Sequence record: PX123008.1
DNA from: a phage
Reading direction: 5' to 3' (one strand)
DNA length: 44,682 nt
The notes below the pieces were generated by a model. It saw only the letters and a list, made by a program, of their open reading frames with translations, did no database searches and was not told the DNA's origin. Each line of letters begins with the position of its first letter. Within the stretch, counting starts at the first letter, position 1. Shown in pieces: positions 1,969 to 7,241 of the stretch. The position numbers were made by a program, and so were the translations under genes.

Positions 1969-3489
1969 ATGACCGTTAACGTTGACAACCAGCACCCACT
2001 TTATGCGCGCATCGCGCCAGAGTGGAAAATGATCCGTGATTGTGTAGCAGGGGAGCGCGCCGTGAAGGCGTGCGGCCCTTTGTACCTGCCTCATCCCGCC
2101 AGTGGCGACAATACTGACCCGAAAGCACGGGCGCGGTATAAGGCGTACAAGCAACGCGCTGTATTCCTGAACGCCACCGCCCGCACACTTAACGCGCTGT
2201 TAGGCGTCGCCTTTGCTAAACCGGTAAGTCTGGACCTTTCCGGGGCGATGGCTGACCTGATTGACGACGTTGACGGCAGCGGTATGCCTCTGCCGCAACT
2301 CCTGCGCGGTGCAATGTCGGAAGTTCTGCAATCGGGCCGCGCAGGCTTTATGGTGGACTACGACCGCCAGGCCCACTTTGATGAACTGGGTAATGTAGTG
2401 CCGCAGACCGCCGCCGAGATGGCTACACACCGCCCGCTTATCCGCCTGTATACGGCAGAGCAGATCATCAACTGGCGGCAGACCCACGGTGTTGACACGC
2501 TAATCGTGCTGAAGGAAACGGACGAAATCAGCACCGAAGACCCGGACGACTTCGCAAACCACGAAGTAACCATCTGGACCGAGCTTCGCATGATTAACGG
2601 TGCGGCACACGCCCGCCGCTGGTTTTATAACGCCGACACGTCCGAGGTGCAAATGGACTTGCCGCGTGGATTTACCCGCACCGACCTTGTGCCGCTGGTG
2701 GATGCTGCCGGTAAAGCGCTGACACAGCTTCCGTTTTGCTGGTGTGGCGCGGTGGACAACAACGCAACGCCTGACGCCGCTCCGCTGGCGGATATTGCGT
2801 CCATCAACATTAAGCACTACAACGCCGAAGCGGACGTCGCCGAGATCGCGCACATCGTGGGCCAGCCTACCCTGGTTGCGACGGGCTTGACTCAATCATG
2901 GGCTGACAAGAACCTGAAGGGAGGCATTGCCCTCGGTGCGACTAAGGGCGTTATTCTGGGTCAGAACATGGACGCTAAACTGATTCAGGCGGAGGAGCGC
3001 AACTTGTCGGTTGCACTGTGTGAGCGTCGCGAATTGCAAATGGCTAAACTGGGCGCGGCCCTGGTTGAGAAGGGGACTGCACCTAAGACGGCAACCGAAG
3101 CGGCCTACGATGCGCAGACTGATAACAGTATCCTGTCGCTTATTGCCGGTAACGTTGAGAAGGCTTTCAACCGTGCGCTGCAAATCGTCCAGCTATTCAC
3201 GGGCGACACCGCCGACCAGCGTGTGACGCTGAATAAGTTCTACACCGAAATCACGGTTGATGCGCAGCTTATGACCGCGATGATGTCGGGTGTGCAGACG
3301 GGTACGGTCCGACTGGCTGACTTTATCAAGTGGATGATGGCGCAGGGCGTCATCGACGACTCGCAAACCGTCGAGCAGGTGGAAGACGAATTGCGAAATC
3401 AGAATCCATTGCCTCAAATGTCCCCTGATGCGGTAGAATCTACCGAAGAAGACCCGGACAAGGTAGCGGACAATGGCGAAGACAATTAA
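1969..3489 (+). CDS. portal protein
   Basis: 506 aa directly after TerL with AAGGA RBS; acidic C-terminal tail; size and position typical of portal. Confidence 0.8.
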   Translation: MTVNVDNQHPLYARIAPEWKMIRDCVAGERAVKACGPLYLPHPASGDNTDPKARARYKAYKQRAVFLNATARTLNALLGVAFAKPVSLDLSGAMADLIDDVDGSGMPLPQLLRGAMSEVLQSGRAGFMVDYDRQAHFDELGNVVPQTAAEMATHRPLIRLYTAEQIINWRQTHGVDTLIVLKETDEISTEDPDDFANHEVTIWTELRMINGAAHARRWFYNADTSEVQMDLPRGFTRTDLVPLVDAAGKALTQLPFCWCGAVDNNATPDAAPLADIASINIKHYNAEADVAEIAHIVGQPTLVATGLTQSWADKNLKGGIALGATKGVILGQNMDAKLIQAEERNLSVALCERRELQMAKLGAALVEKGTAPKTATEAAYDAQTDNSILSLIAGNVEKAFNRALQIVQLFTGDTADQRVTLNKFYTEITVDAQLMTAMMSGVQTGTVRLADFIKWMMAQGVIDDSQTVEQVEDELRNQNPLPQMSPDAVESTEEDPDKVADNGEDN

Positions 3490-4576
3490 TCAATATATGG
3501 CGGATCGAATGATTCGCCGTCACATCTTCACCCAGCGCCTGAGCAATGACCAGGCGCGTAGGGTGCTGGCTATGTGGGAGAAGTTCCGGCCCACGTTACT
3601 GGGTAAGCTGACCGAGTTACTTGATGGCAGAAAGTCCATGAACAACAAGGCACTTACCACTCTGTTAACGCAACTCGACAAGACCGTTAAATCAGAACTG
3701 CGCACCGAGTTTAAGGCGCTGGCAGAAAGCCTTCAGGAGTTCGCCGACACGGAGGCTGATTATCTTGCTGACACACTAACGGCAGCGATCCAGCCCGCGG
3801 TCGCCGTACCTGCTGTTGAGGTGGTGGGCGTAGTGACCGGCGCGCAGATCGCAGCGACGGCTATGAAAAACCCGTTCCAGGGTAACACCATGATGCAGTG
3901 GCCCGATTCACTTTCCGAGTGGACCAGGACGCAGATCGGCAATCAGGTGCGCGCCGGATTCATCCAGGGCAAGCCGACGATGGAAATTATTGCGGACGTG
4001 AGGCGCGCGCTAGGCGGTCGTAGTGCGCAAGCAATATCAAGCGTTGTTAAGTCCGCGGTCAACCACTATGCGGCGACCGCCCGCGAATTAATGGTAAAAG
4101 CTAATGACGATATTCTCGAAGGTCGCCAATGGTTGGCTACATTGGACACGCATACTTCTCCCATGTGCCAGCTACGCGATCGCCTGTTTTATCCGGTTGA
4201 TGTTACTCCCGACACAAAAGGGAAGCGCGGCGGAAAAGTGGTGGCGGGATCACAATATGGCGCTGGTCCGGGCAAGCTGCATTATTGCTGCCGTTCGACG
4301 GAGACGTGGAAAGTCAAAGGTATGGAATATTGGCCCAGTGGTAAGCGTCCGGCACTGAAGGCTGACGCAGGCAGATTGCTGAGTGAGCAGGTCGACGCGC
4401 AGACTGATTTCTTCTCATGGGTGCAGCGCCAGCCGCGCCATATCCTGGAAGAATTATACGGGGTGCAACGAGCCGACCAGATTATGCGAGGCGTGAAAGT
4501 GCCGAAGATGTTCACCGATACGGGCGAACTAATGACTATTGCGCAGCTTAAAAACAGGGGGCTATGGCGTGATTAA
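3473..4576 (+). CDS. head morphogenesis protein (Mu gpF / SPP1 gp7-like minor head protein)
   Basis: 367 aa overlapping the portal 3' end; conserved position after portal; assignment from memory. Confidence 0.6.
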   Translation: MAKTINQYMADRMIRRHIFTQRLSNDQARRVLAMWEKFRPTLLGKLTELLDGRKSMNNKALTTLLTQLDKTVKSELRTEFKALAESLQEFADTEADYLADTLTAAIQPAVAVPAVEVVGVVTGAQIAATAMKNPFQGNTMMQWPDSLSEWTRTQIGNQVRAGFIQGKPTMEIIADVRRALGGRSAQAISSVVKSAVNHYAATARELMVKANDDILEGRQWLATLDTHTSPMCQLRDRLFYPVDVTPDTKGKRGGKVVAGSQYGAGPGKLHYCCRSTETWKVKGMEYWPSGKRPALKADAGRLLSEQVDAQTDFFSWVQRQPRHILEELYGVQRADQIMRGVKVPKMFTDTGELMTIAQLKNRGLWRD

Positions 4577-4877: not shown

Positions 4878-5010
4878 ACCTCCTTGCACCTTTGAGAATG
4901 CCTCGGCAGATCCAGACGAAGACTTGCTGGTTGATGTTAAGAATATGGAGTGTGGTGCTAAGCTAAGGGCGCAAGTGCTGGAGTTGCAGAAAATAATTCG
5001 GGGGCTGTGA
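4780..5010 (+). CDS. o-spanin (Rz1-like outer-membrane lipoprotein)
   Basis: 76 aa; signal peptide with lipobox LSAC; proline-rich mature part; starts inside the i-spanin ORF in the +1 frame. Confidence 0.6.
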   Translation: MLRVLTVLIAVLMLSACGSSKAPLMPLTESVYRPPCTFENASADPDEDLLVDVKNMECGAKLRAQVLELQKIIRGL

Positions 5011-5025
5011 TGGCCCCCTTTTTTG
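5000..5025 (+). terminator. rho-independent terminator
   Basis: GGGGGC-tgtgatg-GCCCCC hairpin followed by TTTTTT; the o-spanin stop codon lies in the loop. Confidence 0.65.
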
Positions 5026-5295
5026 TTAGCGCGGAATGCCGCAAATCTCGTTTAACGTCTTCACGTCCAGCGCCACCGCCGTGGACTTCGGCTTGTCCGG
5101 GTAGGGAATGAACTGTTCCACTTCAGGCCACGCCTTGATCAGCTTCTTATCGGTATTGTGCAAATCCAGCACGCCGGTAACTGTTAGTTTGAACGCGTCA
5201 TACTTCGCACGCAAATCGCGGCGGGCCTTGTCGTTACGGTCCAGGCGCTTACAGAAGTCGTGGTCCGCCGGGTAGTCTATACGACCGCGTGGCAT
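5026..5295 (-). CDS. hypothetical protein; possibly the C-terminal part of the upstream ORF, see (AT)5 finding
   Basis: ORF MPRGRIDYPADHDF...; frame junction with ORF 5277..5792 coincides with an (AT)5 tract. Confidence 0.4.
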   Translation of the reverse strand: MPRGRIDYPADHDFCKRLDRNDKARRDLRAKYDAFKLTVTGVLDLHNTDKKLIKAWPEVEQFIPYPDKPKSTAVALDVKTLNEICGIPR

Positions 5296-5792
5296 ATATA
5301 TATCGGCAGCGCTTTCCCGTCGTCGTCGACTTCGCACACTGACGCTAACAAAATTTCCTCATACCCTGGCACAATATCGCCGAGATCGGGAGACAGTTTA
5401 TTCATGTATTTATACTCCCAGTATCCGCGATGTGCTCGGAATCGGTGTCCGTCTCCGCTCAATGACACGGTACGGACGTTTCCGCCTGCGTTGATTTCGA
5501 AAGTGGCGTCGTAAACGCTGCCTATACCATATGGGTTGTCGGCGTCATGTCTATACGTCGCCTTATTGGTGTACACACAGACGCCGTATATCTGCGACGG
5601 GTCATTGCCGATTGCATAAATGCGCTCACGTAGCTCGGCGAACGTATGAATGCCTTCCGGCATACAGTCCAGCGTAATGGCGTACGCCAGATTTCGAGAG
5701 TCCATCATGATTGATTTGGCTTCGGTCGCGATTTCGTGGTCGCGCAGGATGTTAGCCAGAATCTGGTTTTTAATGTCTTTCGTCAGTCTCAT
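5277..5792 (-). CDS. hypothetical protein
   Basis: 171 aa, ATG with GAGGA RBS 8 nt upstream; no recognisable motif. Confidence 0.5.
   Translation of the reverse strand: MRLTKDIKNQILANILRDHEIATEAKSIMMDSRNLAYAITLDCMPEGIHTFAELRERIYAIGNDPSQIYGVCVYTNKATYRHDADNPYGIGSVYDATFEINAGGNVRTVSLSGDGHRFRAHRGYWEYKYMNKLSPDLGDIVPGYEEILLASVCEVDDDGKALPIYICHAVV
5294..5303. repeat. (AT)5 dinucleotide tract at the junction of two ORFs
   Basis: atatatatat read directly; removing one AT unit would fuse ORF 5277..5792 to ORF 5026..5295 in frame. Confidence 0.9.
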
Positions 5793-5874
5793 TTTTGTGT
5801 CCTCGTTGTTGGGGCTTTCGCCCCTGTTGGTTTAGTTAAACTTGATGTTGCCGCCAATAGGCTGCTTTTGTTAG

Positions 5875-6393
5875 CTACAAACGCATCGGCATGATAACAA
5901 GGAAGGCACCGCCTTTGAACAGCACACGTGTCGCCTTGTCTACTCCCTGAAATTCCAGTTTTAAGCTATCAAACTTACGGTCGAACAATTTAGCAATTTT
6001 GCAGGCGTCGGACAGGTATGCCCCGGCAAACCCTATAGCCTCCACTTTAGCGCTGTCAAAAGACGTAACTCTACGCCAGTCTGGGAATCGGCCGTCTATG
6101 ATCTCTACGGGTATGGTACCGATTAATACGTCTTTACTATCAAAGAACGCAGCGGAGGTGCCGTCTATGTTGCAATATTCGAATTTAGTAGGTAAGCGTC
6201 CTTTAATTGCTACTATTTTACTTTCACCTTCGGGAACAACCGCGGACCCGCAGAACAAGCGATGACCGTCGGTGGCCACAATGAATCCTTTCTCGTCGAA
6301 AAATACACCGTTCAGATAGTATCGCACGTCATTAGTTGCGGCGCACATCATAGCGGCTTTAAGATCAGCATAGTTAACTTTAATCATTGTCAT
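5875..6393 (-). CDS. truncated beta sliding clamp (DnaN domain II-III) homologue
   Basis: 173 aa from ATG with GAGGA RBS; motifs DVRYYLNGVFF, VATDGHRL, DGRFPDWRRV and C-terminal VIMPMRL match E. coli DnaN residues ~145-366 as recalled; no domain I. Confidence 0.7.
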   Translation of the reverse strand: MTMIKVNYADLKAAMMCAATNDVRYYLNGVFFDEKGFIVATDGHRLFCGSAVVPEGESKIVAIKGRLPTKFEYCNIDGTSAAFFDSKDVLIGTIPVEIIDGRFPDWRRVTSFDSAKVEAIGFAGAYLSDACKIAKLFDRKFDSLKLEFQGVDKATRVLFKGGAFLVIMPMRL

Positions 6394-6416
6394 TTCCTCG
6401 TTGTTGGAGTGCAACC

Positions 6417-6446
6417 AATATAGTGCAACCAATACGAGGATTGCAA
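6417..6446 (-). promoter_or_regulatory. sigma70-like promoter (TTGCAA-N18-TATATT) for the clamp-like gene, with ATTGGTTGCAC motif copies
   Basis: hexamers read directly on the minus strand; downstream leader GGTTGCACTCCAACAACGAGGA then ATG at 6393. Confidence 0.5.
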
Positions 6447-6453
6447 GCGAATT

Positions 6454-6481
6454 TTGCGATTATTTTTATCGCTGATAATAT
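6454..6481 (+). promoter_or_regulatory. putative sigma70-like promoter for the scaffold/capsid operon (TTGCGA-N16-TAATAT)
   Basis: hexamer matches read directly ~55 nt upstream of the scaffold start. Confidence 0.35.
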
Positions 6482-6536
6482 TAGAAGCGTGAAGTCGAGC
6501 GGGTGGCCTGCTCTGCCACAATCCCAGGGGGATAGC

Positions 6537-7241
6537 ATGAAACTTACTAAAGCAGAATATGACGCGTTGCCGGAAGGTATGAAGGCGCTTTTTGTTGCCG
6601 ATGGCGACGGGTATAAATCAACTTTCATGACCGCAGAAGAAGTACAGGCGGAAATCAAGGGTCTGAAAGACAACAACGCGAAGCTGGTGAGCGAGAAGAA
6701 AGCAGAAGCTGAACGCCGCGCCGAAGCCGAGCGACTTGCGAAAGAGAAAGAGGAAGCCGCTGCGCGCAAAAATGGCGACCTCGAAGCGATCGACAAGTCC
6801 TGGAAAGATAAGTTTGCTAAACACGAAGCAGACACATCGGGAAAAATCGAAGCCTACCGCAAGCAGATCCACGATCTCACCATCGGCAGCGCTGCCAAAG
6901 ACCTGGCATCGAAGCTGTTCGGTAAGAATGCTGGGATCATGCAACGTCACGTAATGGACCGCCTGACGCTGGAAGACGGCGAAGACGGCAGCTTGAAAGT
7001 GCGTGTCTTGCAGGATGGCAAACCGTCCGCGCTGACTATGGAAGAGCTTGAGAAAGAGTTCCGTAATAACGCCGATTTTGCATCCGTCCTGGCTGGCACG
7101 CCAGCCGGTGGCGCGCCTAGCAAACCGACGCAGGTTGTCGAAGATGTGAAGTCGAAAATCACTATGGGCCACAGCTTCGGTATCACTGACCTTACGAAAC
7201 AGGCAGGTGAAATCATCGCTAAGATGGGCGACGACGAGTAA
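6537..7241 (+). CDS. scaffolding protein
   Basis: 234 aa from ATG with GGGGGA RBS; highly charged, alanine/lysine/glutamate-rich coiled-coil-like protein directly upstream of the major capsid gene. Confidence 0.6.
   Translation: MKLTKAEYDALPEGMKALFVADGDGYKSTFMTAEEVQAEIKGLKDNNAKLVSEKKAEAERRAEAERLAKEKEEAAARKNGDLEAIDKSWKDKFAKHEADTSGKIEAYRKQIHDLTIGSAAKDLASKLFGKNAGIMQRHVMDRLTLEDGEDGSLKVRVLQDGKPSALTMEELEKEFRNNADFASVLAGTPAGGAPSKPTQVVEDVKSKITMGHSFGITDLTKQAGEIIAKMGDDE

Follow-up and report, generated by a model that had tools for sequence, protein, structure and literature searches.

What use could a phage have for a fragment of a bacterial sliding clamp? The question is raised by a short minus-strand open reading frame (ORF) in the phage record PX123008.1, in which an initial annotation had recognized pieces of the beta clamp DnaN by eye. 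We analyzed the whole stretch of 44,682 nucleotides, referred to here as the window, and confirmed that the ORF ending at position 5875 is present in it. The phage is a Dhillonvirus (HK578-like siphovirus), and the ORF product, which we call the mini-clamp, is 98% identical to gp7 of Sodalis phage SO-1 and 92% identical to the homologue in Shigella phage EP23.

5875–6393, minus strand: mini-clamp coding sequence, with a probable start at the ATG at 6387 and the stop codon at 5875–5877

Translation from the ATG at 6393 would give a product of 172 aa, and from the ATG at 6387 one of 170 aa. The second is the likely start, since a GAGGA lies 7 nt upstream of it and the nearest homologues and the EP23 annotation begin with MIKVN. 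The closest database relatives are 170 aa long with this same N-terminus, and the alternative ATG is only 1 nt away from the GAGGA. The protein is mildly basic; DnaN is acidic.

The mini-clamp is a truncated relative of DnaN

All the motifs cited in the initial annotation (DVRYYLNG, ATDGHRL, DGRFPDWRRV and the C-terminal VIMPMRL) are found in the ORF, and the truncated DnaN homology that it proposed was borne out, well beyond chance, by sequence and profile comparison. Searched with phmmer against PDB sequences, the mini-clamp matched 34 beta clamps, that of E. coli (1mmi) with an E value of 2.7e-8. An hhalign comparison, with a profile from 36 mini-clamp family members as query and E. coli DnaN as target (its sequence verified as identical to 1mmi), gave a probability of 99.15% (E 4e-19). 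Unlike DnaN, the mini-clamp stays under the Pfam and NCBIfam thresholds. It falls just short for the DnaN central domain, PF02767 (E 3.7e-5; 24.4 bits against a cut-off of 27), scores 28.9 bits for TIGR00663 against a cut-off of 137.65, and has no Pfam match to PF00712 or PF02768.

The hhalign alignment delimits what has been kept. Residues 10–116 of the mini-clamp correspond to DnaN 138–254 and residues 117–172 to DnaN 314–366, while domain I and DnaN 255–313, the first half of domain III, have no counterpart. This coverage agrees with the earlier view that domain I and roughly half of domain III are absent. Within domain II, the mini-clamp has an 8-residue gap at the site of the second inner helix, which is replaced by a loop in the AF2 model. 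That model is a confident, compact monomer (pTM 0.89) with the beta-alpha-beta-beta-beta repeats of the clamp fold. The two retained pieces can be superposed jointly on a single chain, so their placement relative to each other is predicted to match the native one. Set beside E. coli DnaN (P0A988; PDB 1mmi, 2pol), with its 366 aa in three complete domains, the mini-clamp of ~170 aa thus lacks domain I, the first half of domain III, the second inner helix of domain II and the dimer-interface residues. It is a truncated beta clamp composed of domain II and the C-terminal half of domain III, and the published ring-closing contacts are missing from it.

The initial annotation had likened the protein to beta*. 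In 1996, Skaliter, Paz-Elizur and colleagues reportedly described beta* of E. coli as a shorter, UV-inducible DnaN product made from an internal start. Beta* retains domains II and III in full and has been proposed to oligomerize into a working clamp. The likeness holds at the N-terminus, which in both proteins lies at the start of domain II (DnaN about 130–138), without domain I. It breaks down further along. The mini-clamp does not have the complete domains II and III that define beta*, as its domain II is without the second inner helix and an internal deletion of DnaN 255–313 removes the interface strand from domain III. The mini-clamp is also a separate gene family, not an alternative product of dnaN.

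Pocket residues map to retained segments and interface residues to missing ones

Clamp-binding motifs (CBMs) of the QL[SD]LF type dock in a hydrophobic pocket at the junction of DnaN domains II and III. Published assignments place R152, L155, T172, G174, H175, R176, L177, P242, R246, V247, V360 and M362 in subsite I of this pocket and H175, N320, Y323, V344, M362, P363, M364 and R365 in subsite II, with H175 bridging the two, and they name I78, F106, I272, L273, R103, E298 and E304 as residues of the dimer interface (PMC11139829, a 2024 clamp review). Mapped through the hhalign alignment, all 18 published pocket residues fall in segments that the mini-clamp retains, and all seven interface residues fall within DnaN segments that it lacks. 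The main pocket segments are listed here with residue frequencies in the family.

6307–6330, minus strand: codons for DVRYYLNG (aa 22–29), equivalent to DnaN D150–G157, with pocket residues R152 (0.97) and L155 (0.93)
6256–6273, minus strand: codons for TDGHRL (aa 41–46), equivalent to DnaN T172–L177 in subsite I (T 0.94, G 0.99, H 0.92)
6067–6096, minus strand: codons for DGRFPDWRRV (aa 100–109), equivalent to DnaN D238–V247, with pocket residues P242 (0.99), R246 and V247
6013–6036, minus strand: codons for IGFAGAYL (aa 120–127), equivalent to DnaN I317–V324
5878–5898, minus strand: codons for VIMPMRL (aa 166–172), read straight from the sequence, equivalent to DnaN V360–L366, with pocket residues V360, M362, P363, M364 and R365 (M 0.97, P 0.92, R 0.85)

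DGRFPDWRRV ends the domain II part of the protein, and IGFAGAYL marks the beginning of the retained half of domain III. At the N320 position of subsite II the window protein has Ala, the residue there being Asn in 70% of the family and in the EP23 homologue (IGFNGAYL); the Tyr at the Y323 position is kept. We measured conservation in 143 members, of which 142 are cluster representatives that the HMM search found in a library built at 50% identity. Conservation in the family peaks in the pocket, where the most frequent residue of each position has a mean frequency of 0.73, compared with 0.38 at other positions (Mann-Whitney p 1e-6), and the E. coli residue at R152, L155, T172, G174, H175, P242, Y323, M362, P363 and R365 occurs in 85–99% of the members. 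Conservation of these motifs would not by itself prove peptide binding, because the same motifs are the most conserved core motifs of DnaN generally. Among the roles first suggested for the protein, competition for clamp-binding partners is the best supported, with all pocket residues mapping to what is kept and the pocket the most conserved part.

A geometry can be read from what was kept and lost. Since part of the pocket comes from the second half of domain III, that half must adjoin domain II; since the deleted first half bears I272 and L273, it must be the distal half, which touches the other protomer. By this geometry, the mini-clamp is the II/III junction with both distal sides trimmed.

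The mini-clamp represents a large family of fixed length

Far from being a one-off truncation, the mini-clamp is one of a large family whose members, found in many phages and prophages, have a fixed length of about 165–220 aa. A word-indexed protein search returned 423 homologues, the best 120 of which are 165–269 aa long. When 1.84 billion cluster representatives were searched exhaustively with the HMM, there were 13,258 matches at E<=1e-3 and 3453 at E<=1e-10, the latter possibly including full-length DnaN. The best 150 of the HMM matches are all short (104–236 aa) and mostly span the profile from end to end. In BFVD, many viral proteins of 178–250 aa share the predicted mini-clamp fold (TM up to 0.87). 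Comparison of the gene in the window with that of EP23 gives a dN/dS of 0.19, indicating that the mini-clamp is under purifying selection.

Existing labels for this family disagree. The mini-clamp matches PHROG_3007 over its full length (E 1.1e-56; residues 3–172 on profile positions 2–186 of 190), which bears the label 'RusA-like Holliday junction resolvase', repeated in RefSeq for NC_016566 (EP23), NC_013600 (SO-1), NC_005342 (Bcep43) and others. We found no similarity to RusA among the Pfam matches (E<=1), the PDB sequence matches or the structural neighbors of the mini-clamp. With no sequence or structure search in favor of a RusA-like resolvase, the label appears to be a propagated mis-annotation. 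Membership in an anti-phage defense system was rejected, as the mini-clamp had no match at E<=0.1 among the PADLOC defense-system models. Homology to the clamp is already on record, in that GenBank carries 'DNA polymerase III beta subunit' entries in many phages; labels for the family include EP23 gp8, SO-1 gp7 and Bcep43 gp15 'DNA Pol III b subunit fragment'. The PHROG_3007 and GenBank entries represent the same family as the mini-clamp, and we found them to be labels only, without a functional or structural description. Open-access papers and bioRxiv yielded no description of the architecture or function of truncated DnaN-like clamps of phages, though an earlier study may have been missed. 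What appears to be new here is the recognition of a clamp derivative reduced to its binding pocket, whose function has apparently not been studied.

The mini-clamp is an accessory cassette in Dhillonvirus

In the window, the mini-clamp gene belongs to a minus-strand island flanked by the spanin genes on one side and the scaffold gene on the other, both of them encoded on the opposite strand.

5000–5018, no strand assigned: bidirectional terminator-like hairpin, GGGGGC...GCCCCC with a T-run, closing the minus-strand island and the plus-strand spanin genes
5026–5792, minus strand: Nmad5 (PF18757), co-transcribed downstream of the mini-clamp and split into ORFs of 171 and 103 aa
5800–5812, minus strand: downstream copy of the 13-nt direct repeat TCCTCGTTGTTGG, including the Nmad5 ribosome-binding site; the other cassette boundary
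6395–6407, minus strand: upstream copy of the 13-nt direct repeat TCCTCGTTGTTGG (coding strand CCAACAACGAGGA), including the mini-clamp ribosome-binding site
6417–6446, minus strand: sigma-70-like promoter candidate, TTGCAA-18-TATATT, in the divergent intergenic region, matching at 9/12 positions and not above chance

The island had been described as three genes under a strong consensus-like promoter, and neither part of this description stood. Only two genes are present, the mini-clamp and Nmad5, the second of which looks like two because it is split. In EP23 and UDS3lw the gene is intact, at 254 aa; by comparison, the window is altered by +2 nt within the (TA)5 run of 5294–5303, and Pfam places the N- and C-terminal halves of PF18757 on two separate ORFs. 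The frameshift could be a sequencing error or a natural knockout. Work on the Tmn defense system and Dhillonvirus has found that a missense change in Nmad5 allows escape from Tmn and that the gene is dispensable and toxic when cloned; its deletion did not abolish Tmn sensitivity, and the clamp is never mentioned (PMC11846954). As for the promoter, three sites matching at 9/12 positions occur where 2.4 are expected by chance from shuffled sequence, which is no enrichment. A 12-nt direct repeat, GTGCAACCAATA, occurs twice, at 6409 and 6423 (14 nt apart, 6409–6434), overlapping the -10 element of the promoter candidate; it could be an operator or regulator-binding site.

Comparison with relatives suggests how the gene comes and goes. 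The window has exact copies of the 13-nt repeat TCCTCGTTGTTGG only at 5800 and 6395. In UDS3lw, which has no mini-clamp, the two copies are joined precisely, with 595 bp missing and a single copy at the junction. Since the repeat brackets the cassette and clamp-less relatives keep a single copy, the sequences suggest gain or loss by recombination between duplicated ribosome-binding regions. Among 158 phage records with a Dhillonvirus PolA gene at least 80% identical at the DNA level (90–95% in most), about 16, or some nine distinct phages, carry the cassette. The mini-clamp is thus an accessory cassette that is dispensable within the genus. Among the BASEL phages it varies, being present in Bas14 and absent from its close relatives Bas16 and Bas18.

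The spanin–scaffold locus (window 5000–6540) is an accessory-gene hot spot with four arrangements: promoter, clamp and Nmad5 in the window phage and EP23; promoter, Nmad5 and clamp in phage rolling; Nmad5 alone in UDS3lw and GeorgBuechner/Bas16; and the clamp alone in TheodorHerzl/Bas14. The spanin (lysis) genes are also embedded at this locus, inside the head module. An obligate link between the mini-clamp and Nmad5 was rejected, as each occurs without the other and both orders are seen.

Homologues occupy varied genomic settings

Outside Dhillonvirus, the mini-clamp gene is again in the head module on the opposite strand in Kagunavirus XY2, Skatevirus Skate and Burkholderia Naesvirus Bcep43. 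In Skate (2927–4531) it is the last gene of a small opposite-strand operon within the structural module, its start overlapping the stop of a 57-aa ORF, with a gene for a ParB-HTH/KorB-type DNA-binding protein further upstream. Acinetobacter phage ZC3 has it between head and tail genes. Elsewhere it keeps company with genes of DNA metabolism: Skarpretter has it among Dam, Dcm and dUTPase genes, between the two methyltransferase genes; in Pseudoalteromonas phage C7 it adjoins a primase-polymerase gene; and in Edwardsiella phage PEi21 it directly follows exonuclease, SSB and polymerase genes, a position that fits a replisome role. The PEi21 homologue (3992–4519) is annotated as two CDSs, ORF-53 and ORF-52, which points to a frameshift or sequencing error.

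In P22-like (lambdoid) prophages of Atlantibacter and other bacteria, the mini-clamp gene is part of the early rightward operon, where it separates the immunity genes (cII, or cro if cII is uncalled) from the replication initiator; in the Atlantibacter type, orf48/DUF2740 and a DnaB-type helicase accompany it. Phages of this kind depend on the host Pol III holoenzyme and its clamp, and no polymerase gene was present in the 16 kb fetched around these homologues.

A proposed pocket module outside the ring

We propose, at roughly even chances of being right, that the mini-clamp works as a soluble pocket module outside any ring, binding proteins that bear CBMs and serving as a decoy or adaptor. 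It is a stable, independently evolving derivative of bacterial DnaN in which domain II, its second inner helix reduced to a loop, is fused directly to the C-terminal half of domain III. With the ring-closing elements gone, namely domain I and the half of domain III bearing I272/L273, it would not encircle DNA. As a decoy, it would titrate host clamp clients such as the clamp-loader delta, Hda, or repair or translesion factors; as an adaptor, it would bring a host clamp client to phage DNA. The cassette would apparently be transcribed from the intergenic region that it has in common with the scaffold gene, upstream of Nmad5. That the protein binds peptides, that it forms no ring, which ligands it takes and when it is expressed are points that we infer.

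Published work offers some precedent, including for strong binding by a monomer. Delta has a ~50-fold higher affinity for monomeric beta than for the ring (PMC11139829). MuC of phage Mu, which carries two CBMs, acts via the clamp pocket, and its overexpression disturbs Hda/clamp control of replication initiation (PMC12867686). MuC and Gp168 of Staphylococcus phage Twort (PDB 7evp) are cases of phages manipulating the clamp interaction network by binding the host clamp, whereas the mini-clamp is a copy of the clamp's binding site and would bind the clamp's partners. An indiscriminate decoy that poisons Pol III is argued against by the P22-like prophages, which need host Pol III and its clamp and yet carry homologues. 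Any decoy action must then be selective or mild.

Alternative roles and the search for a partner

The initial annotation had also raised a role as processivity factor for the phage polymerase. In that role, it would serve the family-A polymerase of the phage as an accessory or processivity subunit that forms no ring, with the pocket holding PolA and the remaining inner helices touching DNA, comparable to UL42 of herpesviruses. We consider this improbable. HSV UL42, HCMV UL44 and KSHV PF-8 consist of two full clamp domains, are essential polymerase subunits and have no detectable sequence relationship to the mini-clamp, which by contrast is accessory, does not co-vary with the phage polymerase and has lost one of the two inner helices of domain II. 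About 90% of the Dhillonvirus records that bear the PolA gene do without the mini-clamp, and PolA is 99% identical at the protein level between the window and the clamp-less GeorgBuechner/Bas16.

We scanned all 71 candidate ORFs with the canonical CBM pattern (QL[SDNGA]LF) and with looser patterns of five or six residues. No canonical CBM turned up in any of the phage proteins, and no CBM-like motif in PolA or at a protein terminus. The one notable match is a QLIIF in the Dam-type methyltransferase (PF05869; 25840–26325, minus strand), 25 residues from its C-terminus and inside the folded domain, which is probably a coincidence. Given that the mini-clamp is dispensable in the genus, shows no co-variation with PolA, meets no canonical CBM in the phage proteins scanned and is present in Pol III-dependent phages whose fetched regions hold no polymerase, an obligatory role in PolA processivity is unlikely.

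Other partners were sought in two ways. When the window, Bas14 and rolling, which have the clamp, were compared with Bas16, the single clamp-less genome in the comparison, only the mini-clamp ORF itself separated the groups, and no co-varying phage ORF was found among all window ORFs; SSB, nuclease and helicases are 93–98% identical between the window and Bas16. The genes adjoining the mini-clamp elsewhere (the Skate 57-aa ORF, DUF2740/orf48 of P22-like prophages, small ORFs of Skarpretter) include no common protein and no CBM. As these neighbors share no protein, we rejected a conserved small partner gene.

Could the mini-clamp instead close a ring of its own, as a true sliding clamp? At ~1.5 domains per protein the arithmetic fits, since four protomers of three half-domains each, for example, would supply the twelve half-domains of a normal clamp. 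A packing surface should also be left without its partner by the loss of half of domain III, and this surface may be exposed and drive self-association; for beta*, too, oligomerization into a clamp has been proposed. We think such a ring quite unlikely. Every published native interface residue is absent, one of the three expected inner helices is missing, AF2 predicts a confident, compact monomer, and the survey of ORFs found no clamp loader encoded within the window. Taken as a whole, the sequence evidence argues against a closed ring of the DnaN type.

Another possibility is that the protein ties late transcription, or the packaging of DNA, to replication, on the model of T4 gp45 and of Mu MuC working via the host clamp. 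Its attraction is in gene position. In four unrelated groups (Dhillonvirus, Kagunavirus XY2, Skatevirus and Naesvirus Bcep43) the gene lies in the head-morphogenesis module, between head-morphogenesis/portal and scaffold/capsid genes, and clamp-dependent late transcription is documented for T4 (PMC2988020) and Mu (PMC12867686). The mini-clamp gene is nonetheless on the opposite strand to the head genes in all these cases and is dispensable in Dhillonvirus, it sits elsewhere in replication or DNA-modification modules, no transcription-factor partner was found, and the site also houses spanins and Nmad5, resembling a general insertion hot spot. Such a coupling role is very unlikely in our estimate.

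Poisoning of the host clamp, in which the mini-clamp pairs with a DnaN protomer, would draw on the clamp fold and the beta-sheet edges that the two proteins have in common. Both halves of the head-to-tail interface are gone (I78/F106/R103 with domain I and I272/L273/E298/E304 with the first half of domain III), and homologues are carried by P22-like prophages, which need the host clamp. The hetero-oligomerization with the host clamp suggested initially accordingly finds no support, all seven interface residues being in the missing segments, and we give host-clamp poisoning only a slight chance. Finally, a decaying remnant without function is hardly credible: the gene is a fragment of a cellular one, is dispensable within Dhillonvirus and is annotated as two split CDSs in PEi21, but dN/dS of 0.19, a length and architecture fixed over hundreds of divergent clusters, strong motif conservation and a confident fold prediction all speak against decay.

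Implications for a possible phage takeover of the replisome

Besides being an antibiotic target, the pocket of the beta clamp is the hub where replication, repair and translesion synthesis are coordinated, along with the control of initiation and some mobile elements. The mini-clamp family presents a natural, minimal and probably monomeric version of this pocket domain, which selection has maintained in divergent phage lineages numbering at least in the hundreds. We suggest, more tentatively than for the pocket module as such and with the balance somewhat against us, that mini-clamps are widespread, unrecognized phage factors that rewire the host clamp network by sequestering or redirecting CBM-bearing proteins. 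Candidates for such proteins would be the clamp-loader delta, Hda, mismatch-repair or translesion factors, or a defense protein that uses the clamp. If so, mini-clamps would be the mirror image of phage proteins that bind the clamp itself. Recognition of the family would also correct its widely propagated mis-annotation as a 'RusA-like resolvase', or as a 'DNA polymerase III beta subunit' with its implication of a working clamp. If the proposal is right, the mini-clamp would provide a compact scaffold for the study or screening of CBM ligands, and would represent a new phage route to the takeover or tuning of the host replisome.
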